DNA from: a virus
Lineage: Duplodnaviria > Caudoviricetes
DNA length: 36,344 nucleotides
Reading direction: 5' to 3' (one strand)
Virus record (IMG/VR): IMGVR_UViG_3300021364_000072
Span: 1-36,344 of that record
Shown: positions 14,860 to 30,055 of the stretch, in pieces
How positions within the stretch are numbered: position 1 is the stretch's first letter
How the letters are laid out: each line of letters opens with the position of its first letter
Notes under the pieces: generated by a model
Told to the model about the DNA's origin: nothing
Databases searched by the model: none
The model's input: only the letters and a program-made list of their open reading frames with translations
Position numbers and translations under genes: made by a program

Positions 14860-15927
14860 TTACGAAATTACGCTAAATGTGTAATCATCATCAAAGAAAT
14901 AATCAGTTCCATTGATTCTAATTTTAAATTCTATAATATATACTCTATCAACTTCCCAATTAGATAAATTTAAATTAAAGTAGTTACCATCAGTATCACA
15001 ACTTAATTTTGTGTAATCTGAAAATGGAACGATTACTTCACCCGAATGATAATCACATATTTGGTAATATGATGTTGTTGGTAAGAATTTACTAATACCA
15101 TATTGCGCAGTTGATGAGAATGTTTTAATTGGATATAAGTCTCTACCAATTACCCTAAATTTAGGAGTTGTGTTTACTTTATATTCTTTTTTGAAGTTTC
15201 TAATTCCAACTTTGATTTCTTCAGATGTTAGTTCATCTAATGAGCCAGTTGAAAATACCGAATCATCCCATCCTATTCTAATCTTTGGTTGATGAATAGT
15301 GTTTGTTTCTTTACTAAAGAACTTTAAAATACCATAATCATTGTTATCCTCTTCTTTTTCCAATGGTAATTTTAATATAATACCATCATTTGGAATAGAA
15401 CCACTAATCCAATCAACCATAATGTCTTTGATATCCATTGAAATATCTGTGGTCTTATATTCAAAGTTTTGTAATGAAGAAGATGCATAATAAAATGTAC
15501 CACCCTTACCTTCATATGAACCAGTAGATACACTACTAAATTCAGATGTTTCTAACCATCGTAATACAGAATCACCCTCTCTATTGTTCCAAGTTACACC
15601 ACTTGTAGTAATATCATCGAATCTAGTACCATTACCCATCTCCCAACTTTGAGAAATCGGATATGCTTCTATTTGAAATTCTAATGGAAGTTCTTCCGAT
15701 TCAGTTTCTTTTAATATAAGAGTTGCTTCTGACATTGTTACCGAACCCTCAGATAAACTGGAGGATAGTCCGTTTACATCAAATTTAAGAAGTGCTCTTG
15801 ATACATCTTTAATATTACCATAGTAAACCTTACTTACTTCTAATACCTCATCTAAACCAGCGTTTTGGTCGGGTTGTTGTAAGTACACCGATGCATCTTT
15901 TGATGCTGTTAAAAAATAGTATGCCAT
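14860..15927 (-). CDS. DNRLRE/CBM96-like domain virion protein
   Basis: ASKDASVY...N.G.DEVLEV...RALLKFD...SEATLIL...VTWNN...NDGIILK...FFSKE...QPKI pattern is typical of DNRLRE-type domains. Confidence 0.65.
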   Translation of the reverse strand: MAYYFLTASKDASVYLQQPDQNAGLDEVLEVSKVYYGNIKDVSRALLKFDVNGLSSSLSEGSVTMSEATLILKETESEELPLEFQIEAYPISQSWEMGNGTRFDDITTSGVTWNNREGDSVLRWLETSEFSSVSTGSYEGKGGTFYYASSSLQNFEYKTTDISMDIKDIMVDWISGSIPNDGIILKLPLEKEEDNNDYGILKFFSKETNTIHQPKIRIGWDDSVFSTGSLDELTSEEIKVGIRNFKKEYKVNTTPKFRVIGRDLYPIKTFSSTAQYGISKFLPTTSYYQICDYHSGEVIVPFSDYTKLSCDTDGNYFNLNLSNWEVDRVYIIEFKIRINGTDYFFDDDYTFSVIS

Positions 15928-17960
15928 TATCTTGCCCTCCCTTTTATATCCGAATTTGGAAATTTAACTTCGAAAACCGATGGGTCTAAAGATGGATATA
16001 AAATCTTATCTTTAATCGCCGCTTCTATATTATATGAGTTTGGTGTATATTGACCACCACACTTATTTACAATTTTTAATTTTGGTACTGAACTAACTCC
16101 CTCAACATTTGCCACAATCAATTCTAATTCAGAAAGATTAATAGTATTATTAAAAGTCCAATTATCAATACTAAAATAATCTTGTAGTTCAGATATACAA
16201 TCTGATAGTACTTCACTTTTATTATAACTTTTTAAAGTTATAATTTCAAACTCAACACCAATATTAATGATAAACCCATCATTTATATTTACACCATCAG
16301 TTAAAATTTTGTATTCTGAAAGATATGTTTTTAAATTTTCCTTTACTGCTCTATTAAGATTTGTTAACTTCTTTTCGGAATCATATCCTAATAAATAAAG
16401 ATTAATAGCAAATGGATTATTCTTTTCATTATCATTAGATGTTTTACCAGTTAGATATTTTTGTATCTCTTGCTTAACACTTCTTCTATCAGGTTCCTCA
16501 TTATCAGGTTTTTCTACAAAACTCATTACCAATTCGGTAAACTCATTAAGAGCTTGTGGTGAGCTTAATATAGAAGATGGTGAGTTATTATCCAATGTTC
16601 CATCTGCTGTAGCGTATGCTTTTGCAATCGAACCAAACTTAGTTGGCATCGATAATGCTCTGATTTCATAATCCTTAGAAGTTACTGCTCTATTTTGTGA
16701 ACCGAAGTTAGCCAATGCGTTTTGTCTAATCTCCTCCATTGTATCACCACCCTTACCACCAGTTGCAGGAACTTCATTATCTACTGCGATAGAGTTTTTA
16801 GCTGCATTGTATATTGATAATTGGGTTGGTGTAAATAATGTTGTATCTTCTTCAAATTCCGTACTTCTAATTTGAGTAATTGAACCTTTCTTTACATTTG
16901 ATTCCACACCACCACCAACTAAATACTTTACAGTTATAGTTGTGTTAGATGGAGATGTACCATATGTTTTAGTTTTCAAAAAGTTAGTTGGGTCAAATGA
17001 TTCTTCTAATTTAGAAATAGAATTAGGTAACCCCAATCCAACGTTTTTAAGGTTAGGTATAATCGTTTCATCATTTGATGTTGGGTCTCCAGCTCCAAAT
17101 TGAATAGTTGTTGTACTGTCTGGGTTGATTTGTTTAACAAATCTACGAGATGTTTTTAATGTATTTAAAACATAAGGTACAGTTGATTTAAATTGATAAA
17201 GGTCTGGGTCATTTGATTCTGTATTTGGGTAATCCACAAATACTAATTCTTGTGCTAAATAAGGTACTTCATAGAATTTGTTACCATTTGAATCCCTTAC
17301 ATCATAGATATCTATTATGTTGGTATCTAATAAATCAATACTTTGAAAAGATTCATATGCACCAAACGTAAACTCTTCCTCTTTTATTTCAGCTGAAATA
17401 GCATTTACCAATTTCTTAACTAAATAAAATGAAGTTTCTCCACTTACTGAATCAGTTTGGTATATTGTAATTTCTCTATCTGTTGAATCTGAAAAATCTA
17501 CAACATCTCTAGTAATAAACTTAACCCCATTTGATGATTCTAATATCATACCTTCTTTAATTTTTAAAAGATACGTTTCATCAAATGTATTATTTGCACC
17601 TGTTCCAGTTGATGGAACCAATTGGTAAACTGAAAGAGTTGTTACTGCTGGTGAGGATACTTTTGGTTTATATCCTAAGTATTGTGAGAGTGCTATCACA
17701 TTCTCAATATCATCAGCATAAGTCATTAATGATTCCTTTAAGGTATCATCAACATAATATGAAAGTGAATCACCAATGTAAGATGCCATTTCAATGAACA
17801 TCATACCCGGTGAAGATTCGTTAAAATCAGAATAAGTTTGTGGGAAATAAGTTTTAGCAAACTCAATAAGATTAGTTCTGAATTCAGTAAAATCTTTATT
17901 GAGGTATTTTATATCCTTACCTCTATTCTTAAAATTCTTTGTTGTTTTTGTAATTGCCAT
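15927..17960 (-). CDS. gp6: Baseplate wedge subunit (T4 gp6 / baseplate J-like)
   Basis: KDFTEFRTNLI...YSDFNESSPGMMFIE, LGYKP, IQFG, and GG.GGDTMEEIRQNA...QNRAVTSKDY. Confidence 0.88.
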   Translation of the reverse strand: MAITKTTKNFKNRGKDIKYLNKDFTEFRTNLIEFAKTYFPQTYSDFNESSPGMMFIEMASYIGDSLSYYVDDTLKESLMTYADDIENVIALSQYLGYKPKVSSPAVTTLSVYQLVPSTGTGANNTFDETYLLKIKEGMILESSNGVKFITRDVVDFSDSTDREITIYQTDSVSGETSFYLVKKLVNAISAEIKEEEFTFGAYESFQSIDLLDTNIIDIYDVRDSNGNKFYEVPYLAQELVFVDYPNTESNDPDLYQFKSTVPYVLNTLKTSRRFVKQINPDSTTTIQFGAGDPTSNDETIIPNLKNVGLGLPNSISKLEESFDPTNFLKTKTYGTSPSNTTITVKYLVGGGVESNVKKGSITQIRSTEFEEDTTLFTPTQLSIYNAAKNSIAVDNEVPATGGKGGDTMEEIRQNALANFGSQNRAVTSKDYEIRALSMPTKFGSIAKAYATADGTLDNNSPSSILSSPQALNEFTELVMSFVEKPDNEEPDRRSVKQEIQKYLTGKTSNDNEKNNPFAINLYLLGYDSEKKLTNLNRAVKENLKTYLSEYKILTDGVNINDGFIINIGVEFEIITLKSYNKSEVLSDCISELQDYFSIDNWTFNNTINLSELELIVANVEGVSSVPKLKIVNKCGGQYTPNSYNIEAAIKDKILYPSLDPSVFEVKFPNSDIKGRAR

Positions 17961-17966
17961 ATCTTA

Positions 17967-18395
17967 TTATCCCTGAACTGTAAATGTTAGAGTTTCTAAA
18001 TTAATATCATCTCCTATTCTAAATTTAATCGAAACATTTAATTTATTGTTATCTCTCAATTCATCAGTTGATTCAATATCAATCTCTTCTGCTGTAACAT
18101 AAGGTAACCATTGTTCTAAACTATCGTTTATAGTATCTTCTATTCTACCTTCCAAATCATCTACATTTGGTTCAAACAATAACGATTGTAAACCACTACC
18201 AAATTCAGGTTGTATAATACGTTCCCCCTTTTTAGTAAGTAGAAGATTTTTAATATTTGATTTAACTTGGTCTTTGGTTAGAAACGATTGCTCGAATGTA
18301 TTTTCACCAAATTGTAATGGTAAAGTGATACCAATCGCATAGTTTGCAAATTCTTTAGTATCTTTAACAATTCTTCTTCCTAACTCAACTGCCAT
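17967..18395 (-). CDS. gp25: Baseplate wedge / sheath initiator (T4 gp25-like)
   Basis: VKSNIKNLLLTKKGERIIQPEFGSGLQSLLFEP...QWLPYV, the GPW/gp25 signature. Confidence 0.92.
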   Translation of the reverse strand: MAVELGRRIVKDTKEFANYAIGITLPLQFGENTFEQSFLTKDQVKSNIKNLLLTKKGERIIQPEFGSGLQSLLFEPNVDDLEGRIEDTINDSLEQWLPYVTAEEIDIESTDELRDNNKLNVSIKFRIGDDINLETLTFTVQG

Positions 18396-20215: not shown

Positions 20216-21436
20216 TTATTTAAGTTGTACGTTATTACTTAACATTGATTGTAATTTAGTTTTCAATGTTGTAAATTGTGCTATATTGGTTGGACCGGGT
20301 GATGATGGACCGGCTGGAGTTAAATATATTTGTTGTGTTATTAAATCTATCATTTCACCCAATAACTCTACCAAAGTTTCACCCTTAGCAGCGGCTTCCA
20401 ATTCACCATCAGTTCCTAACATAATAGAACCATTACCAATATCTAAGTTAATATCTCTATCTTGTGTATCAACAAATATATGATTATCAGTTGTAATGTT
20501 TATACCATCAGTTGCATCAATTGAAAATTGACCATCGGTTATAAACCCTACATCTTTTTTTGCAGAAAAAATCATTTCAGCTGCTTTAGCAGAAACGATT
20601 ATTCTATCTGAATTTAGTAGAATTTGATTTCCCTTTAATTCAGAAGGGTAATTGTAAAATGATGGATATTCATTTTCAGTTGGTAATGTATATTCTAATA
20701 ATCTATCACCACTACCTAAATAAATAATATTACCATCATCATTAATATTTTCTTCAGTAGATGCTCCAATTGGTTTTGTTAAAGATTCACCATTTTCTCC
20801 ATTTCTAATTGTAATGCTTGGTGAAAAAATGTTATCAGGATTATTATATCCACTAAATCTAATTGATTGACCAAATCTGCTTTCTATTAAATTATCACCT
20901 TCATATAATTTAAGTTTATGAATAGTTCCATCTGGTGTGAAATATTCACCCAATGTTGAGGTATCAGTTTCATCTAAGGAACTTTCAGCTCTTGGTATTC
21001 CAGTTGATTGTACACTACTATAATTAGAAGCTGTATTAGTATCTGCTGCTTTTTCTTTTTTCTGAACACTACTTATCTCATCTAAGCTAGTGTTAACATT
21101 TGGTAAAGATGAACCTATAATTCGTTCATACACATAACCACCGCTGGGTGAGTTAATTATATGAATAGTTTCATTTACAGTTGGTAATGAAACATTTGTT
21201 TTATTTTTAGGTAAAGCTAAACTCAGTGCTTCATCTTTTTTATTTGGACTATTCGATGCTCTGAATAATACGGCTCCAATGTATTTACTCTTTAATTCTT
21301 CTACTATTTCTAAATCAGTAAGAATATCATCAGAAGTATCCAAAATAACCTTATACACCACACCCATAGTGGATGTTGGTTTAGGTTTTCTATCAACTCT
21401 TTGATTAGATTGTACATTACTATTTCTATTGAACAT
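20216..21436 (-). CDS. Baseplate central spike/hub protein (T4 gp5/P2 gpV-like, no lysozyme domain seen)
   Basis: OB-fold-like N-terminus (LPTVNETIHII), YEGDNLIESRFGQSIRF, beta-helix-like repeats, and C-terminal KGETLVELL...TPAGPS. Confidence 0.7.
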   Translation of the reverse strand: MFNRNSNVQSNQRVDRKPKPTSTMGVVYKVILDTSDDILTDLEIVEELKSKYIGAVLFRASNSPNKKDEALSLALPKNKTNVSLPTVNETIHIINSPSGGYVYERIIGSSLPNVNTSLDEISSVQKKEKAADTNTASNYSSVQSTGIPRAESSLDETDTSTLGEYFTPDGTIHKLKLYEGDNLIESRFGQSIRFSGYNNPDNIFSPSITIRNGENGESLTKPIGASTEENINDDGNIIYLGSGDRLLEYTLPTENEYPSFYNYPSELKGNQILLNSDRIIVSAKAAEMIFSAKKDVGFITDGQFSIDATDGINITTDNHIFVDTQDRDINLDIGNGSIMLGTDGELEAAAKGETLVELLGEMIDLITQQIYLTPAGPSSPGPTNIAQFTTLKTKLQSMLSNNVQLK

Positions 21437-21893: not shown

Positions 21894-22037
21894 TTACCTA
21901 CCTTGCCCCCTATATGCCTTTTTGTAGTTTCTACTATTTTTAGATTTAGAAGTTTTGCTCTTAGCGTGAACACCAGGTCTCTTCTTACTTTGAGAACGAT
22001 ATAACGAAATACCAAAACCTCCCTTTGCTTTTGCCAT
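21894..22037 (-). CDS. Small basic protein (47 aa, ends YRGQGR), not in the ORF track
   Basis: Hand translation: MAKAKGGFGISLYRSQSKKRPGVHAKSKTSKSKNSRNYKKAYRGQGR. Preceded by ATACTTATT. Confidence 0.8.
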   Translation of the reverse strand: MAKAKGGFGISLYRSQSKKRPGVHAKSKTSKSKNSRNYKKAYRGQGR

Positions 22038-22090: not shown

Positions 22091-22621
22091 TTACTTATTC
22101 TTATAAAAGAATTCTAATATATCTCTTTCTAAAGTAACATCCATTACGAAGTTATCTCCATACATAATGCTAGTAAATGTTCCTTCATCTTCATCGGTTA
22201 TTTCGATAACATAATCTATCTCATCAAATGTTACTTTATAGCTTTCACTCTTTCTGATTCTTTGTATGTTTTTATGTTCCGTAGTTCTTTCAACAACTTC
22301 TTTACCACTTATATCAGGTACATTTAGAAGTTGAGTTACACATTTAGCATAGTTTGTTTTGAGAGTATCTATAAAGAAGATATCATTCATCTTACTCATT
22401 AGATACAATCTTTGCTTTTTATCCAAACCACCTGCCTTAAAATCACCAGTGTATTGTACTATCGGTAAAGATAGTATTGCTTTTTTAGAATCATCTTTTA
22501 GATTTCTGAAATCTACTTTGGATTTTATTTGATGAGGATGATTGATATCTCTATCACATGGTAATGCTAAAATATCATAGAATGTATTTGTACCAAAGTG
22601 TTCTTGTATTAGAGGACTCAT
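22091..22621 (-). CDS. Hypothetical protein, last gene of the two-component operon
   Basis: 176-aa ORF starting 2 nt after the stop of the membrane-protein gene. Confidence 0.75.
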   Translation of the reverse strand: MSPLIQEHFGTNTFYDILALPCDRDINHPHQIKSKVDFRNLKDDSKKAILSLPIVQYTGDFKAGGLDKKQRLYLMSKMNDIFFIDTLKTNYAKCVTQLLNVPDISGKEVVERTTEHKNIQRIRKSESYKVTFDEIDYVIEITDEDEGTFTSIMYGDNFVMDVTLERDILEFFYKNK

Positions 22622-22623
22622 CT

Positions 22624-23196
22624 TTATTCTTTTTCAGTAGCATATTTTACACCCATAATTGTACCAACGATTGAGAATGCGTTAGTAAGGAGAATACCAA
22701 ACATATTACTCCAAGTAGAACCAATGATTTGAGTATCAGTACCAGACATCAATGCCAATCCATACATAACAGTTGTAAGAACACCAACTCCAACAATTAC
22801 ATAAAGTGCTACCTTTACAATCGTACTGATTAATTCGAATTGGGTTTTCTTTTGCATTACTTCTAAATCTTCCAATGCTTTATCCTTACCCTTTTCTGCT
22901 TCCTCTCTTAACTGATTAGATTCTTCCAATGCTATTTGGAGTTCTTCCATCAGTTCATCATTTTCTTTTTGCTTACTAACAAGTTCTTTATTTTGTTGTT
23001 GAACTTGCTTAGTTACCTTTAATCGTTTTCTTCTTGATTCAGAATCCTTTTCCTTACAAAGTTTTAGATACTCTTCGAACTCAGTATCACCTTTAGGTGC
23101 TTGTAGAATTTTTAAGAAGTTTCCTTCTATGTAAATTTTTTTCTTTTTAGCAACACCTAAAAGAACATCTCTTGTATGTTTTGTAACCTCAATCAT
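22624..23196 (-). CDS. Coiled-coil membrane protein with two C-terminal TM helices
   Basis: Long E/K/Q coiled coil followed by hydrophobic IVKVALYVIVGVGVLTTVMYGLALM and MFGILLTNAFSIVGTIMGV. Confidence 0.8.
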   Translation of the reverse strand: MIEVTKHTRDVLLGVAKKKKIYIEGNFLKILQAPKGDTEFEEYLKLCKEKDSESRRKRLKVTKQVQQQNKELVSKQKENDELMEELQIALEESNQLREEAEKGKDKALEDLEVMQKKTQFELISTIVKVALYVIVGVGVLTTVMYGLALMSGTDTQIIGSTWSNMFGILLTNAFSIVGTIMGVKYATEKE

Positions 23197-23202
23197 TATA
23201 GG

Positions 23203-23649
23203 TTACTTATAAACTTTGAATGGAGCAGTTCGGTTTAGATATCCATCATAATCTTTTCTGAAATCTTCTAATCGAGGTTCAATATCATCTGATTTAATAA
23301 TCCAGAATTGTGCACCAGCCGATTTTGCCTTTTCAATTTCTTGTTTGTCATCTGATGAAGATATAATTCCGATTACACACCCATTACCATATTCGAAATT
23401 GATTTTACGAATCAACTCAATCCCATCAAAGGATGAACCGATTATATTTAAATCAACGAATACACACTCAGGTCTATCATCATCATTGTTATCAGGAAAC
23501 CATTCTTTAAATTTTTTATCAGCTTCATCGGAAGAGTTAAGTGCTTCCAAAGATAAAGTGATATCTAAGATACTACAAGCATCTTCAAATACTAAGTGGA
23601 ATAAATCCTCATCATCCACCAGTAAGATTGAGTTAATCATTTCATTCAT
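23203..23649 (-). CDS. Stand-alone response regulator (receiver domain only, CheY-like)
   Basis: ILLVDDED acidic pocket, VFVDLN phospho-Asp, DGIELIRKI, IISSS and AGAQFWIIK. No output domain. Confidence 0.93.
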   Translation of the reverse strand: MNEMINSILLVDDEDLFHLVFEDACSILDITLSLEALNSSDEADKKFKEWFPDNNDDDRPECVFVDLNIIGSSFDGIELIRKINFEYGNGCVIGIISSSDDKQEIEKAKSAGAQFWIIKSDDIEPRLEDFRKDYDGYLNRTAPFKVYK

Positions 23650-24878
23650 TTTAAATTAATTCTTAATTTAGTGCCGTTATTTAATTTTTCGGCTGTTATT
23701 CCAAAACCATGTTCATTCAGAATTGCGATACAAATATTTAATCCCAATCCAGAACCCCCCTCTTTTTGTCCTTCTTTTCTTGTATATGGTTTGGATAACT
23801 CAATGAACTCATCATTAGTAATCCCCCTCCCATTATCTTCTACACACATTGTTGAGTTATTTTCCATATAAACTCTAACCATCTTTGTACTACTATCGTT
23901 ATACTTTAATCCATTTCTGATTAAGTTATCTATTGCCGTACAAAAGAGTGGTTCGTTTACTGGTGTGGTTGGTAATCTCTCTATCTTAACTTGTGAGATA
24001 TAAGATGTAGAAGATAAATAGTTTCTAAGTATCTCAGCAAGGTTACATTCTACCATATCTAATTGTGCATCTTCCTTTACCAAATTGGTAAATTCTTTTA
24101 CACCTGAATACACTTTCTGAGTATGTCTTAATCCTTCCTCTAACATTCGTAGTGGAGAACCTATTTTTAATTCTTTAATTTTTTCTTCCGATAATCTTCG
24201 TTGTAAGGATGATAATCCTCTTGGCATATATGTGTTGATACCACTATGCATATCGTGTCGGAGAATCTTTGCAGCATGTTCTAAGTAAGAGTTTTTCTGA
24301 TTAACTTCTACCTCTGCTAAGTGTTGTAGTGTTGTATCGGTTGCTATCTTTAGAACTCTATCATAACCACCATTAATACTTTTAATAGGAGTATAATTAC
24401 CAAACAACCAAACAGAACTTCCATCTTTTGCTATTCGTTCAAACTCACCACTTATATTTTCTCCTCTTTTTAATCTTTGCCAAAACTCTCTATATTCCAA
24501 ACTTTCTCCATATTGCTTTGGAACTAATGTTTTATGTTGTTTATACTTCAAATCCTTTTCAGTACATTTCATTGTACTACAAAATTTTGAATTAGCTTCT
24601 AAAACATAGCCATCCATATCCAACATTACAACTAAGTTTGATTTATCAATTGCTGCTAGTTGTAAATCAATATTCTTTTCTTTGAGTTTTGTACTTTTTA
24701 TGAAATTATATATGACGTAAGCAAATGGTGGTATAAATAAAATTATACAACCATATCCAAATTCAGCTAAAAGATAAGAAGGTTCTAACCATCTGAATAT
24801 AATACAAGTTTGTACTATAAAAAAGATGAATATAATAGAACCCGCTATGCCTAAACATATTTTTGCGAACTTATTCAA
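23646..24878 (-). CDS. Membrane-anchored PAS-domain sensor histidine kinase
   Basis: Two N-terminal TM helices, PAS/PAC (EYREFWQRLKRGE...KDGSSVWL...Y.P...KIATD), H-box LRHDMH, N-box DNLIRNGLKYN, G1 EDNGRGI and G2 GSGLGL. TTG start, ATGA overlap with the receiver gene. Confidence 0.93.
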   Translation of the reverse strand: MNKFAKICLGIAGSIIFIFFIVQTCIIFRWLEPSYLLAEFGYGCIILFIPPFAYVIYNFIKSTKLKEKNIDLQLAAIDKSNLVVMLDMDGYVLEANSKFCSTMKCTEKDLKYKQHKTLVPKQYGESLEYREFWQRLKRGENISGEFERIAKDGSSVWLFGNYTPIKSINGGYDRVLKIATDTTLQHLAEVEVNQKNSYLEHAAKILRHDMHSGINTYMPRGLSSLQRRLSEEKIKELKIGSPLRMLEEGLRHTQKVYSGVKEFTNLVKEDAQLDMVECNLAEILRNYLSSTSYISQVKIERLPTTPVNEPLFCTAIDNLIRNGLKYNDSSTKMVRVYMENNSTMCVEDNGRGITNDEFIELSKPYTRKEGQKEGGSGLGLNICIAILNEHGFGITAEKLNNGTKLRINLK

Positions 24879-24960
24879 TTTATAAAATATCGTTCAAATT
24901 ATATTATCGGGGAGATAACTGTTTGAACTTTTTGGGTGTGAAGTATTATAACCTATTTAG

Positions 24961-24969
24961 AATAAATAT
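24961..24969 (-). promoter_or_regulatory. Putative late promoter motif variant ATATTTATT heading the two-component operon
   Basis: Intergenic, 82 nt upstream of the kinase start. Confidence 0.5.
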
Positions 24970-24973
24970 AGGT

Positions 24974-25693
24974 TTAGTAAGAAAAGAACTCATCTTCATC
25001 TTCAGTATCTTTGACTTCACCATAATCCAAATAATCATTTAGCATTTTCTTTTGGTGGACTTTCATTACATTTACAACCTTAGTAATGTAGTGAGTTTTA
25101 CAATCAGTCATTTCTCTGATTAGAAGATACAAATGTTTTTTGTTGAAGTTTTCAATATATTGACTTCTTCTGAATAATTCTAAGATAGCATCTGCTATTT
25201 GAATATCTCTTTTCTTTGTAAATATTTTTGTTAGATTCTTATCCCAATACTTTAACATAAGTTGTTTAAACTCACTAAACTCATCCCCCTGCTCTCTATG
25301 ATAAAAATCATCTTCGGGATTCCAAGTTTGTGGCATTTGGGATAATAAATCAGTTTTCTTATATCTTTTATAGTTTGAATTATTGTTTAATATAAGATAA
25401 TTTTTTGCTACAATAGAAAAATAAGAGAACGCCTTACCCTTACCTTCTTTGAACATATGAATTTTTTGAATTAATATAGCAACTACCTCTTTTTGTACAT
25501 CTTCTTTTGGTACATCAAAGTAGGAGAACTTAAATGTGTTTAAAATATTTTCTGCTAATTTTTCAAATGGATATTTAATTCTCGTACGATACAATTCATT
25601 TTTTTCTTTATCGTTTGTAGAGTTGTTATACGCTATAATCGCATCTTGCGTATCTTGTGTAAAATATTGTTTGTTTTTTCTAGGTCTTGGCAT
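24974..25693 (-). CDS. Phage RNA polymerase sigma factor (T4 gp55-like, putative late sigma)
   Basis: Region-2-like EDVQKE...IQKIHMFKEGKGKAFSYFSIVAKNYLI, with an acidic/aromatic C-terminal tail DEDEFFSY like the gp55 clamp-binding tail. Confidence 0.75.
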   Translation of the reverse strand: MPRPRKNKQYFTQDTQDAIIAYNNSTNDKEKNELYRTRIKYPFEKLAENILNTFKFSYFDVPKEDVQKEVVAILIQKIHMFKEGKGKAFSYFSIVAKNYLILNNNSNYKRYKKTDLLSQMPQTWNPEDDFYHREQGDEFSEFKQLMLKYWDKNLTKIFTKKRDIQIADAILELFRRSQYIENFNKKHLYLLIREMTDCKTHYITKVVNVMKVHQKKMLNDYLDYGEVKDTEDEDEFFSY

Positions 25694-26524: not shown

Positions 26525-27103
26525 CTATACTAATTTATATCCTTTATCTAAAAGAGGTTGTGCTTTTTTGTATTTAACAAATTCCATATCTCCTTCAGGT
26601 GATTGTAACATTACTCTTTCGTTTCTACCTGGCTTCTTTTCAACTTTTCTTTCTTGGCTATATCTTCGTATAGGTGAGTTTATATCAATACCATCAATTG
26701 AATCGATTAATCTTTGTGCGGTAATACATTCGAACAATCCCAAATCATTCATAAACTCATCTTGATTTTTCCAAGTTTCTTTATCTGATGAAAATTCTAC
26801 AATACCTAAATTATCAGTATCTACTTTAAAAGATTTATGTCTTACTGTTTTTCTAATTTTATTTTTCTTAAAAGAATCTTTTTCAAAGTACTGAACCATA
26901 TCATTTGAGGTTTCAGTAACTTTTGGATTAACTAAAGTTAAATCTTCATAATCACCACCAAACTTAATCGTAACAATTCTTTTATCCATACCAACATCTA
27001 ATGCGGTAACTGCAAACTCTTTATCTAATTTAGATATTTTTTCTTTATATAGGTTTAACTCTTCGTTTGTAACGGGAGTTCTTTCAACTCTTTTTACTAT
27101 CAT
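26525..27103 (-). CDS. Degenerate (predicted inactive) peptide deformylase-fold protein with a SEC-C-like tail
   Basis: PDF-like layout AVTALDVGMDKRI...LVNPKV...YFEKDS...TVRHKSFKV...CITAQRLIDSIDGI, with all catalytic motifs altered. Confidence 0.7.
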   Translation of the reverse strand: MIVKRVERTPVTNEELNLYKEKISKLDKEFAVTALDVGMDKRIVTIKFGGDYEDLTLVNPKVTETSNDMVQYFEKDSFKKNKIRKTVRHKSFKVDTDNLGIVEFSSDKETWKNQDEFMNDLGLFECITAQRLIDSIDGIDINSPIRRYSQERKVEKKPGRNERVMLQSPEGDMEFVKYKKAQPLLDKGYKLV

Positions 27104-27260
27104 AATATTTTTCTATTTCTTCGGTTAGGTAATCTACTGATTCTGAACTTCCGATAAGTGCTCCATACTTTGAATAGTATTCAATCCATTTATCTTTATC
27201 AGATTCAAATTGTTCTTTTAATTGATATATTTCTGGCACATGAACTTTTATGTAACTCAT
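27084..27260 (-). CDS. Hypothetical protein (58 aa), not in the ORF track
   Basis: Hand translation MSYIKVHVPEIYQLKEQFESDKDKWIEYYSKYGALIGSSESVDYLTEEIEKYYDSKKS. ATGA overlap with the cupin stop. Confidence 0.7.
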   Translation of the reverse strand: MSYIKVHVPEIYQLKEQFESDKDKWIEYYSKYGALIGSSESVDYLTEEIEKYYDSKKS

Positions 27261-27643
27261 AATAAATCCTCAGGTGTTTCTCTATAAACTCTATAACTAT
27301 CTTCATCAAAGTGTTCAGTCGAAACCTCAAATACAATTGAGTTATCTTCTAATGAAATTAACTGATGAGGTAATCCTCTTTCAATTAAAACACTATCACC
27401 CTTCTCTAAAGTTTTACCTTCTAATTTTCCATCTTCTACATTCAACCAATTAAATTGAAATCTTCCTTCTTGTACATACCAACTTTCTTTTTTCTTTAAG
27501 TGGTAATGCATTGAAAATCTATTTCGTTCTTTTGTGAATACCAATAATTTCCCACAATACTCTTCATCGTTGTGAATCCATAGTTCATATCCCCAATTCT
27601 TTTCTACTCTCTTAGGAGCTTTAATATCTACATCTATAATCAT
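27257..27643 (-). CDS. Cupin-domain protein (mannose-6-phosphate isomerase-like)
   Basis: VEKNWGYE, SMHYHLKKKESWYVQEG and GLPHQL cupin metal motifs. Confidence 0.85.
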   Translation of the reverse strand: MIIDVDIKAPKRVEKNWGYELWIHNDEEYCGKLLVFTKERNRFSMHYHLKKKESWYVQEGRFQFNWLNVEDGKLEGKTLEKGDSVLIERGLPHQLISLEDNSIVFEVSTEHFDEDSYRVYRETPEDLL

Positions 27644-28593
27644 TCTGCGTAACTTTGTGTGTTTAACAATCCACTATAAGCACATACACTTTCTCTTGCA
27701 ACAAACGGCATAATAGCCAATTCCTTTGCTTTAGCTTCTACCATTACATCAACATTGGTTCCATATAGGTTTGGTAATTCATTGATATAATCTGAGTGTG
27801 CTTGTGGTTTTAATTTATCATTCTCTTCGTGTAATGCTTTACTTTCAGAGTAATGAACAATAGGTTTAATATCTTTTGGCCAAGTTGAGATTGCTAATCT
27901 TAATGCTTCTTCTTCACTCAATCCACCAGTATTGAATTTGTGGTGATGGTAATCAAATACAATAGGGATACCAATTTTTTCATGCAAATACATCAAGTCT
28001 TTTACTGAATACATTGATGCTTTATCATCGTTCTCAACAGTCAATCTACTTTTTACCGAATCAGATAATCTTTCAAAGTTCTTACAAAATCTATCCATAG
28101 CTGATTTCTTATCTCCATAAACACCATTACAATGAATGTTGATTTTGTTATAATGTGATTTTTCTAATCCTAACAAATCAAAAATCTTACCATGCATTTC
28201 TAAATCAGTAATTGTATTTTCTACTACATTCTCTCTTGGAGATACTAATACGTTAAATGGACCAGGATGTGATGTAATTCTAATTCCATTTTGTTTTGCA
28301 TAATGACCACAGCCTTCTAACATTGTCTTAATTCTTAGATAATGTGGTGATTTTTCAATATCATACTCAGAACCCCAAGGAAACATTTCAGATGATAATC
28401 TGAATAGTTTTATTCCGTTTTTATTATTCCATTTTAAAATATGAAATAAATCTCTTGCATTTTGTAACCCCAATTCAGTTGCGTATTCAACACCCCTTTC
28501 TAAGAATGTTCTTTTAATCATAGAACGATTGGTAGTTATTTTTGGTTTTTGACCCGATAGAGTCATATTAATACAAGCGTATCCTAAATTCAT
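27640..28593 (-). CDS. uvsE: UV DNA damage endonuclease
   Basis: LGYACIN, FRLSS, HPGPF, NIHCNG, LTVENDD, VFDYHHH, VHYS, AHSD and VEAKAKELA. Confidence 0.96.
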   Translation of the reverse strand: MNLGYACINMTLSGQKPKITTNRSMIKRTFLERGVEYATELGLQNARDLFHILKWNNKNGIKLFRLSSEMFPWGSEYDIEKSPHYLRIKTMLEGCGHYAKQNGIRITSHPGPFNVLVSPRENVVENTITDLEMHGKIFDLLGLEKSHYNKINIHCNGVYGDKKSAMDRFCKNFERLSDSVKSRLTVENDDKASMYSVKDLMYLHEKIGIPIVFDYHHHKFNTGGLSEEEALRLAISTWPKDIKPIVHYSESKALHEENDKLKPQAHSDYINELPNLYGTNVDVMVEAKAKELAIMPFVARESVCAYSGLLNTQSYAE

Positions 28594-28660: not shown

Positions 28661-30055
28661 TTAATAAGTTTTAGAATCGAAATCAGTAGGATAGTTTGTA
28701 TCCTTTTCATTTTTGATATAAGTTAACCAATAGTTTACTGCGTTTTGGTTATTTATCCATTTACTTCTATCACCCCAATTGAAATCAGGTCTAGCATAAT
28801 ATGGTTTGGTTGCTGCTACATACTTTGCTCTCATAGATGATGAAGGAACTGGTTCATCAATTAACCCATCACCACTATTATCATATCCATCAATAGTACC
28901 ATCACCATCAATATCAACACCTCGTCTTTTTGTATCTTTTTTTAACTCAACACCACCAACAACTACAGTTTCATCAACTTTTTTTTTTAAATCTTCTGCA
29001 GCTTCTTTTAACTCTTCGTTGGGTTCTGATTCTTTTTCGGATTCTTCTACAATTTTTGAAATATCCTTTGGTGATAAATCAGATACCATATCATTCATTA
29101 CCATATCCAATGCATGGTCTTCATCAAACTCTTCTTCTGTTGGTGGAGCAAATCCTCTTGCTTCATCTGGTAAGGTTTTTTCGTTTTCTTCTTCAACAAT
29201 TTCTTCTTCAGTTACTTCATCATATAACTCTCTTTTACGAATTACCTTTTGTTTATCAACAACTCCTTTATCAACTTTCAAAGCATTATTAAATGCAACA
29301 ACCAATGCTACTGCTAATGGGTCGAATACAAAGATAATAATAAGAATAAACCAATTAATAATTTGGTCCATTGGTTTATCCAATAATCCGCTAAGGTATT
29401 GTAAAGGACCTAGTTCTGATGAAACACCTTCCGATGATTCAACATCCAATATTTTTAATTGAATAGATTGTAATGAATCAGCTGCTACTTCTCTTTTTGC
29501 TTGAACCCCTTTACGATTCTCTTCTTCAACTGATATTCGTTGTTGTGATAATCTTAATTCGGTTGTTGAAATAGTATTTCTAAATCCAGTTGTTGATGAA
29601 GTATCTCTAACTTGAATAGAACTTGCTTTAGCATTTGATAGTGTTGCTATATTATCTGATATTCTTTCTAACTCTACATCATATCGAGCTACATCATCTC
29701 CCCAAAACTTTTCTTTTTGTTTTAGAAATGATAATTGTTTTTCTTGAACACTAAACTGATTAAATGTATCTTGAAATGCCGATGTAAGGAATCCGTAGAT
29801 ACCCAATGATGTAATTAGTATTAAAATAACCACTGCTCCACTTAGATAGATTCTAAATGTTTTGTTTATCTTTTCCCAATAGTTGTAAAGATATCCAGCC
29901 GTAATTAATTTAGCTAATTCCAATGAACTTGCCATTATCATAACGGAGAATGCTGCTCCTGCAAATAGTTTAGATAAACCACTTACGGAGAAGAATGCTG
30001 CGTTAAATGCTACGAACAACGCAGATAACCCCAATAATAGTGTTCTGAATTTCAT
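28661..30055 (-). CDS. Multi-pass membrane protein with a coiled-coil loop and an acidic tail carrying tandem Dx[DN]xDG-type motifs
   Basis: Three N-terminal TMs, a coiled coil, TM WFILIIIFVFDPLAVALVVA, then DIDGDGTIDGYDNSGDGLIDE. Confidence 0.8.
   Translation of the reverse strand: MKFRTLLLGLSALFVAFNAAFFSVSGLSKLFAGAAFSVMIMASSLELAKLITAGYLYNYWEKINKTFRIYLSGAVVILILITSLGIYGFLTSAFQDTFNQFSVQEKQLSFLKQKEKFWGDDVARYDVELERISDNIATLSNAKASSIQVRDTSSTTGFRNTISTTELRLSQQRISVEEENRKGVQAKREVAADSLQSIQLKILDVESSEGVSSELGPLQYLSGLLDKPMDQIINWFILIIIFVFDPLAVALVVAFNNALKVDKGVVDKQKVIRKRELYDEVTEEEIVEEENEKTLPDEARGFAPPTEEEFDEDHALDMVMNDMVSDLSPKDISKIVEESEKESEPNEELKEAAEDLKKKVDETVVVGGVELKKDTKRRGVDIDGDGTIDGYDNSGDGLIDEPVPSSSMRAKYVAATKPYYARPDFNWGDRSKWINNQNAVNYWLTYIKNEKDTNYPTDFDSKTY

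Follow-up and report, generated by a model that had tools for sequence, protein, structure and literature searches.

The window analyzed here is the whole stretch of 36,344 nucleotides of the virus record IMGVR_UViG_3300021364_000072 (Caudoviricetes), and it codes for a signaling module made up of a sensor histidine kinase, a stand-alone receiver, and a membrane protein in which a coiled coil precedes a hairpin of two transmembrane (TM) segments. We found that the module is mobile and conserved among phages, rather than a fragment captured from a host, and we lean towards reading it as a private phosphorelay that would set the lysis time of the host through the hairpin. The case that the family is real, widespread, and phage specific, with a new output protein, is strong, as is the genomic case for a role in lysis control. 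As the gene order is fixed, the module is nearly absent from cells, endolysin genes lie close to it, and sensors are found fused to the hairpin, a lysis relay is likely the best explanation.

Conservation and distribution of the module

Scans of viral contigs returned at least 629 stretches for the kinase, at least 284 and at least 454 for the membrane protein, and at least 509 for the receiver, with 80 loci retained per scan. The order kinase-receiver-hairpin was present in 64 of 64 loci fetched with the kinase and in 64 of 64 fetched with the receiver, counted over loci with enough flanking sequence (16 kinase-fetched and 10 receiver-fetched cut loci were left out); the flanks themselves vary freely among relatives. 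The original prediction depended on these genes being conserved together in related phages, and this is what we see across hundreds of viral contigs. It had also described a four-gene operon, of which the kinase, receiver, and hairpin genes are the fixed core, while the fourth gene, coding for a 176-aa protein, is accessory, being found in 17 of 118 lineages. Within loci fetched via the module, it lies directly behind the hairpin gene in all 40 distinct copies, and its product gave no usable atlas match and no Foldseek match at an E value of 0.001 (best VIA Z, 5.0).

Marine and freshwater viromes commonly contain the family, and the membrane protein matches 6,854 protein clusters. Two hairpin patterns run against 185,579 prokaryote genomes hit four contigs, in bins of four different phyla, of which two look phage-like by gene content (judged by eye) and one copy is frame-shifted. 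Among GenBank phages, neither the membrane protein nor the receiver had a match, and the kinase core had two weak generic ones. Loci with the module range from 27 to 67% GC (guanine plus cytosine), on contigs of up to 430 kb, the receiver is more than 60% identical across that range, and the genomes sharing it probably have unrelated hosts. Two of the module-bearing contigs in genome bins contain other clusters: L139 (9377-13812) has one that we presume to be of the PrkA/SpoVR/YeaH kind, and L141 (67% GC) codes for many pentapeptide-repeat proteins with one common N-terminal leader.

The coil-hairpin protein as probable output

Two C-terminal hydrophobic segments were found in the 190-aa membrane protein, in agreement with the coiled-coil protein with two C-terminal TM segments proposed earlier. 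In its structure model (mean pLDDT [predicted local distance difference test] of 83 and pTM [predicted template modeling score] of 0.36), a small N-terminal domain is followed by one helix (residues 38 to 151) and a return helix (156 to 188), and the second TM helix carries an invariant polar stripe (Ser163, Asn164, Thr171, Asn172, Ser175, and Thr179). The protein matches no family in Pfam, PHROGs, or NCBIfam. A structure atlas search returned viral clusters of its own family alone, and BFVD gave one uncharacterized phage homolog.

Residues 105 to 190, which contain the hairpin, match 808 proteins of at least 334 residues, and among the matches listed 120 of 120 carry two PAS domains or a GAF domain, with a hairpin identity of 70 to 78%. 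These sensor-hairpin fusions are located between holin-like and endolysin genes, in loci without the kinase and the receiver, and they also lack the N-terminal domain of the 190-aa protein. Among lineages cut at 90% identity and with enough upstream DNA, 128 have this domain together with the receiver, 19 have neither, and 3 are discordant. The discordant loci (in the 75% listing) are L139, where the receiver is present and was uncalled as an open reading frame (ORF), L046, with a cut ORF, and L402, a true lone copy. As the fusions lack all three parts, and the N-terminal domain and the receiver are kept or lost together, the sequences indicate that kinase, receiver, and N-terminal domain jointly stand in for a directly fused sensor, and the hairpin is very probably the output of the relay. 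The post-translational link to the membrane protein that had been suggested is thus supported by gene order, fusions, and domain co-occurrence.

The coil between these parts varies in regular steps. Of 320 proteins, 25 were unmeasurable and 295 measurable, and in 294 of the latter the N-terminal domain motif and the hairpin are separated by 34, 41, 48, 55, 62, 69, or 76 residues. GAF fusions have coil lengths of 84 and 91 residues; amidase lengths, taken as a control, spread over all seven classes, unlike the coil lengths. Heptad-step lengths are described as a mark of signal-carrying coiled-coil linkers of sensor kinases (PMC6798134). A spanin, another reading of the 190-aa protein, was ruled out, as the coil lies on the N-terminal side of the TM pair and is joined, in the fusions, to PAS domains of the cytoplasm.

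Other membrane proteins occur next to the hairpin gene. In 15 of 118 lineages, the receiver gene is separated from the hairpin gene by one for a 165-aa multi-TM protein with a C-terminal coil and no family match (as in L123:6887-7390). Three lineages have in the same interval a rhodopsin gene of 192 to 193 aa (L066:10170-10751, L144:7001-7582, and L123:7394-7972), always behind the 165-aa protein; it matches Bac_rhodopsin in Pfam (1e-13), its best PDB match is the viral rhodopsin OLPVRII, and the helix G Asp and the retinal Lys are kept. A light input or a modulator of membrane potential is possible.

Link to lysis genes

Frequent neighbors of the module include a peptidoglycan-binding amidase, an M15 peptidase, a family matching endolysins in PHROGs, DUF5675, a Phage_holin_4_1-like protein, and small two-TM proteins. 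Counted with profiles of four enzyme families, endolysin genes amount to 80 in 490 kb up to 2 kb from relay modules, 3 in 412 kb at 2 to 4 kb, and 4 in 386 kb at 4 to 7 kb, a density about 19-fold higher within 2 kb than at 2 to 7 kb (7 in 798 kb). Among lineages with more than 2.5 kb on both sides, an endolysin lies within 2 kb in 48 of 93 relay lineages and in 13 of 15 fusion lineages, and in several loci the hairpin gene comes immediately before it. The four enzyme families are unrelated, and they are found upstream or downstream of the module and on both strands. In a quick tree of 70 lineages, the 37 that are lysis-linked need 19 changes, 13 of them forced by well-supported branches. As the linked lineages are scattered and the enzymes lie on either side, the linkage is not a single inherited accident.

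A separate small holin-like gene lies within 3 kb of the module in 30 of 50 relay lineages linked to lysis genes, another small membrane gene in 15, and neither in 5. Because most of them have another holin candidate, the gene content favors the hairpin being a regulator or gating partner of the holin rather than the sole holin. Lysis timing, superinfection exclusion, and host motility had all been put forward as outputs; the relatives support the first, while the other two gained no support.

In the subclade of the window, the module no longer lies near the lysis genes, and the small membrane gene upstream has been lost; having drifted from the lysis genes, the copy in the window is less informative than those of its relatives. 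A query with holin families in five partial sister genomes gave no match and carries no weight. At 3.8 kb upstream of the kinase, the window also codes for a 464-aa membrane/coiled-coil protein (28661-30055, minus strand). In many relatives, a member of its family comes immediately after the hairpin or holin gene (within four genes in 13 of 118 lineages), and the protein may belong to the lysis neighborhood.

Kinase and receiver

(i) Sensor kinase. The kinase matches PAS_3 (3e-10) and HATPase_c (2e-13) in Pfam. Two N-terminal hydrophobic segments separated by a loop of about 10 residues, as predicted, are followed by the PAS domain (residues 83 to 183, with His115 and Trp133), the H-box with His208, and HATPase_c (312 to 409). 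The H-box (ILRHDMHSGIN) is atypical and no match to HisKA was obtained in Pfam at an E value of 0.01, so the kinase is not of the classical HisKA type; the phospho-accepting His and the N, G1, and G2 boxes of HATPase_c are conserved, as expected for a two-component kinase and as the original prediction held. Among 224 distinct kinases, 221 retain the His208 H-box. The 224 comprise 104 with the TM pair and one PAS domain, 33 with the TM pair and two PAS domains, 17 with the TM pair alone, 37 with PAS and without this TM pair, and 33 with neither, some of which are fragments or second kinases. Since 17 of the 224 retain the membrane part without PAS, we can assume from these architectures that the PAS domain is a swappable input and not a constant of the system.

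The closest solved PAS structures are those of MmoS and Aer (3ewk, 2e-11; 8dik, 3e-7). Trp133 and His115 align with Trp70 and His53 of Aer, the Trp/His pair of FAD (flavin adenine dinucleotide)-type PAS domains, and among relatives the Trp is present in 215 of 215 and the His in 213 of 215. In accounts of FAD-binding PAS domains, the Trp is described as the main FAD determinant, with the His under the flavin (PMC10468136, PMC9668731). Because both residues of the pocket are kept, FAD-based redox sensing is likely for the kinase copy of this window. The chemoreceptor-like PAS domain of the original prediction is thus borne out in its nearest structures and its FAD-type residues, but a redox input is not universal, as the domain is lost in some relatives.

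In 29 of 118 lineages, a 62- to 66-aa two-TM protein with an invariant Cys-Pro-Ser-Lys motif is coded directly before the kinase (for example, in the L006:7813-8001 region and at L128:6459-6659). It has no family match and is a candidate kinase partner; the window, L001, and L002 are without the gene. Some huge phages (L140, L164, L192, and L200) have tandem kinases separated by a gene of 200 to 245 aa with a signal-like N terminus, and a single receiver.

(ii) Receiver. The receiver-only regulator was correctly recognized, as Pfam finds Response_reg and no output domain. It has the acidic pocket (Asp12/Asp13/Glu14), Asp66, Ser97-99, and Lys119 expected of a receiver, and the Asp66 and Lys119 motifs are present in 191 of 191 distinct receivers. 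It is the most conserved part of the module, with a mean pairwise identity over 204 triples of 0.78 versus 0.51 for the N-terminal domain of the membrane protein, and it is strongly acidic (mean net charge, -14); residues 50 to 72 of the 190-aa protein are basic. Invariant residues are found in helix 1 and over the whole alpha4-beta5-alpha5 face. Kinase and receiver, whose interface is invariant, are a candidate insulated signaling pair. Compared with three relatives, synonymous codon changes exceed replacements in kinase and receiver, and on this pattern both look functional. The bacterial donor group was not found in a representative search, because distant receivers are almost all unnamed.

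Proposed mechanism and alternatives

Late in infection, the kinase would read the host membrane and, in this copy, also the redox state via its FAD-type PAS domain. The phosphate would pass from His208 to Asp66, upon which the acidic receiver would bind or release the basic N-terminal domain of the 190-aa protein, and the change would travel along the coiled coil with its fixed heptad register. The hairpin would then open or, more likely, restrain or release a separate small holin, so that lysis would be delayed or advanced. The switch could work in either direction, and in the window subclade the module would act at a distance from the lysis genes. A broader reading, to which we give about even chances, is that a large group of aquatic phages possesses a modular signal-to-lysis device, in which interchangeable sensors act on a single membrane hairpin with a coiled coil, and the burst time is set according to the redox, energy, or light state of the host. 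The sensors would be FAD-type PAS domains, GAF domains, intramembrane segments, and, in three lineages, a rhodopsin gene, acting directly or via a kinase-receiver pair.

Several observations weigh against a phosphorelay that times lysis. The hairpin matches no holin or antiholin family in Pfam, PHROGs, or NCBIfam, and fold searches with it return generic helical hairpins with Z scores under 10. The four lysis enzyme families and the holin families tested are absent from the 36-kb window and from 19 subclade loci, and in the relative G003 the amidase and the module are more than 100 kb apart, and the 3.4 kb read around the amidase contain no holin candidate. More generally, in 45 of the 93 relay lineages the four endolysin families are missing from the 2 kb on either side; these families were chosen for being common in these loci, with other endolysin types uncounted, and one of them, DUF5675, is not a proven endolysin. 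The linkage to lysis genes could come from a shared late promoter, and a purely structural coiled coil would keep heptad steps too. In L402 (5574-6230), the coil-hairpin protein has its N-terminal domain, and kinase and receiver are absent from the 13 kb read. As for the redox input, the position of the FAD-binding Asn (Asn85 in Aer) is Arg148 here by pairwise alignment; this flavin-bonding Asn is described as kept only in some clusters of FAD-type PAS domains (PMC10468136, PMC9668731).

The alternative that survives best, unlikely in our view, leaves the relay in control of the hairpin and makes the hairpin a gated ion leak or membrane plug for superinfection exclusion, energy management, or defense evasion, with lysis genes as neighbors since both are late membrane genes. 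It would fit with about half of the relay lineages, the window included, having no nearby endolysin, with the invariant polar stripe of the second TM segment, as in a small channel, and with the separate holin-like gene in 30 of the 50 lysis-linked relay lineages. It would not predict an enrichment confined to 2 kb that involves four enzyme families, on either side of the module and on either strand, nor fusions between holin-like and endolysin genes, and virion and other late genes are not comparably constant neighbors.

Stand-alone receivers often have targets encoded elsewhere, as do CheY, Spo0F, and DivK, and the receiver could likewise target a motility, cyclic nucleotide, or two-component protein of the host, the hairpin gene being an independent passenger. 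A fixed host target would also give a receiver more conserved than the N-terminal domain. We consider this improbable, as the receiver and the N-terminal domain are kept or lost together, direct sensor fusions replace both, and the same receiver occurs at more than 60% identity in genomes of 27 to 67% GC, with probably unrelated hosts. Just as doubtful is that the hairpin is the holin itself, unregulated or self-timed, with a kinase-receiver pair that merely fine-tunes it or has lost control in this subclade: against the five lysis-linked relay lineages without another small membrane gene, the loci in which the hairpin gene directly precedes the endolysin, and the loss of the small upstream membrane gene in the window subclade stand the intact kinase and receiver with their excess of synonymous changes and the other holin candidate of most lysis-linked loci. 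Last, recent capture from a host or a chimeric assembly, the objection raised with the original prediction, has in its favor the bacterial origin of the kinase and receiver folds and is refuted by the hundreds of viral contigs, the matching GC content (0.311 in the module versus 0.313 in the window), the independent virus record G001 with 3001 identical bases, and the near-absence from cellular genomes.

Genomic context of the window

The window forms part of the large genome of a tailed phage and has nearly all genes on the minus strand, among them those for a primase, baseplate wedge, PhoH, Hsp20, and UvdE. The four ORFs of the module lie where they had been placed, all on the minus strand, with the ATGA overlap and the gaps of 6 and 2 nucleotides seen in the sequence (Table 1). 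Of the predicted neighbors, the baseplate is supported by wedge genes at 15927-18395, while the sigma factor (24974-25693) and the spike (20216-21436) are unconfirmed, with no match to either region in Pfam, PHROGs, or PDB sequences.

TABLE 1 Features of the signaling module in the window
Feature	Position	Strand	Remarks
Sensor histidine kinase, 410 aa	23646..24878	-	TTG start, common to L001 and L002
Stand-alone receiver, 148 aa	23203..23649	-	Pfam Response_reg, 2e-7
Coil-hairpin membrane protein, 190 aa (predicted output)	22624..23196	-	N-terminal domain, helix, two-TM hairpin
N-terminal domain (residues 1-72 of the 190-aa protein) with a basic helix (50-72), predicted to dock the receiver	22981..23196	-	Co-occurrence with receiver
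Soluble two-domain protein, 176 aa, accessory	22091..22621	-	Outside known families
TATATTTAT leader motif, candidate late promoter	24962..24970	-	Position and leader counts

The late-type motif said to head the operon is present (ATATTTAT at 24962-24969) and enriched in leaders across lineages, being found in the module leader of 38 of 161 lineages versus 0 of 161 control stretches within the kinase gene, but the total count of TATATTTAT in the window (6 versus 3.4 expected) is not above chance. It also occurs upstream of several virion-block genes, and its late character is inferred from position. A stem-loop in the kinase leader (24892-24928, minus strand) is kept in L001 and L002 with loop changes and has no extra stability compared with shuffles (z, -1.1). 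The 95-nucleotide kinase leader may be a remnant of the small membrane gene found in sister phages.

TTTG-N20-TATATTTG, whose upstream TTTG element we take to be part of a flavobacterial promoter, is found directly upstream of two genes (4 matches versus 1.25 expected; 5 of 100 shuffles as high). The TAnnTTTG box is given as the flavobacterial sigma-A consensus in PMC9723704. Because the element stands directly before two genes and the box is flavobacterial, the host is probably a member of the Bacteroidota. Sequencing runs containing window DNA are mostly marine, and parts of the module are covered at 90 to 99% identity by contigs of four marine RNA runs, contigs that cannot show transcription. 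Between the module and the virion block, we also found a very basic (Lys/Arg/Ser-rich) 47-aa ORF (21894-22037, minus strand), present in L001 and L005 as well, and at 26525-28593 (minus strand) there are genes for a divergent peptide deformylase, a cupin, and the UV-endonuclease UvdE.

Significance and comparison with known systems

Known control of lysis time answers a superinfecting phage or an internal holin clock. A phosphorelay owned by the phage, if true, would mean that a lytic virus reads host physiology and chooses its burst time, and as the family is common in aquatic viromes, it could shape the timing of carbon release by aquatic bacteria. The one-gene PAS-hairpin fusions beside holin and endolysin are a small cassette open to direct testing. 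In openly accessible papers on phage kinases or receivers tied to lysis, huge phages, PAS, and rhodopsin, we found no description of the family.

CheA-CheY and KinA-Spo0F are bacterial two-component systems with a stand-alone receiver. The module resembles them in the N, G1, and G2 boxes of the His kinase, in the acidic pocket, Asp, Ser, and Lys of the receiver, and in having no DNA-binding domain. Unlike them, it is a phage-only family with an H-box outside Pfam HisKA, it reaches no NCBIfam cutoff, and its output protein is outside known families. The PAS domain keeps the FAD-pocket Trp and His as described for Aer, AerC, MmoS, and NifL (PMC9668731, PMC10468136); in contrast to Aer and MmoS, the Asn is replaced in the window copy, the domain is lost or doubled in relatives, and FAD binding is predicted.

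Phage phiCDHM1 likewise encodes a histidine kinase, AgrC, as part of host-derived agr quorum-sensing genes (PMC3901668). It differs from the module in this host derivation, and the abstract of that paper lists no phage response regulator or dedicated membrane output. Lysis inhibition in T4 is described as a delay upon superinfection through the holin T and the antiholin RI (PMC11413866), and TeaA and ArrA of ICP1 as a delay of lysis via an antiholin upon superinfection (PMC7182436). As far as these accounts go, the two systems differ from the module in that superinfection is the signal and the holin is bound directly by the antiholin from the periplasm, without a kinase, a phosphate, or a cytoplasmic sensor. 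What the module would share with them is a phage that senses a condition and alters its lysis time via lysis-set membrane proteins, as demonstrated for T4 and ICP1 and predicted here.

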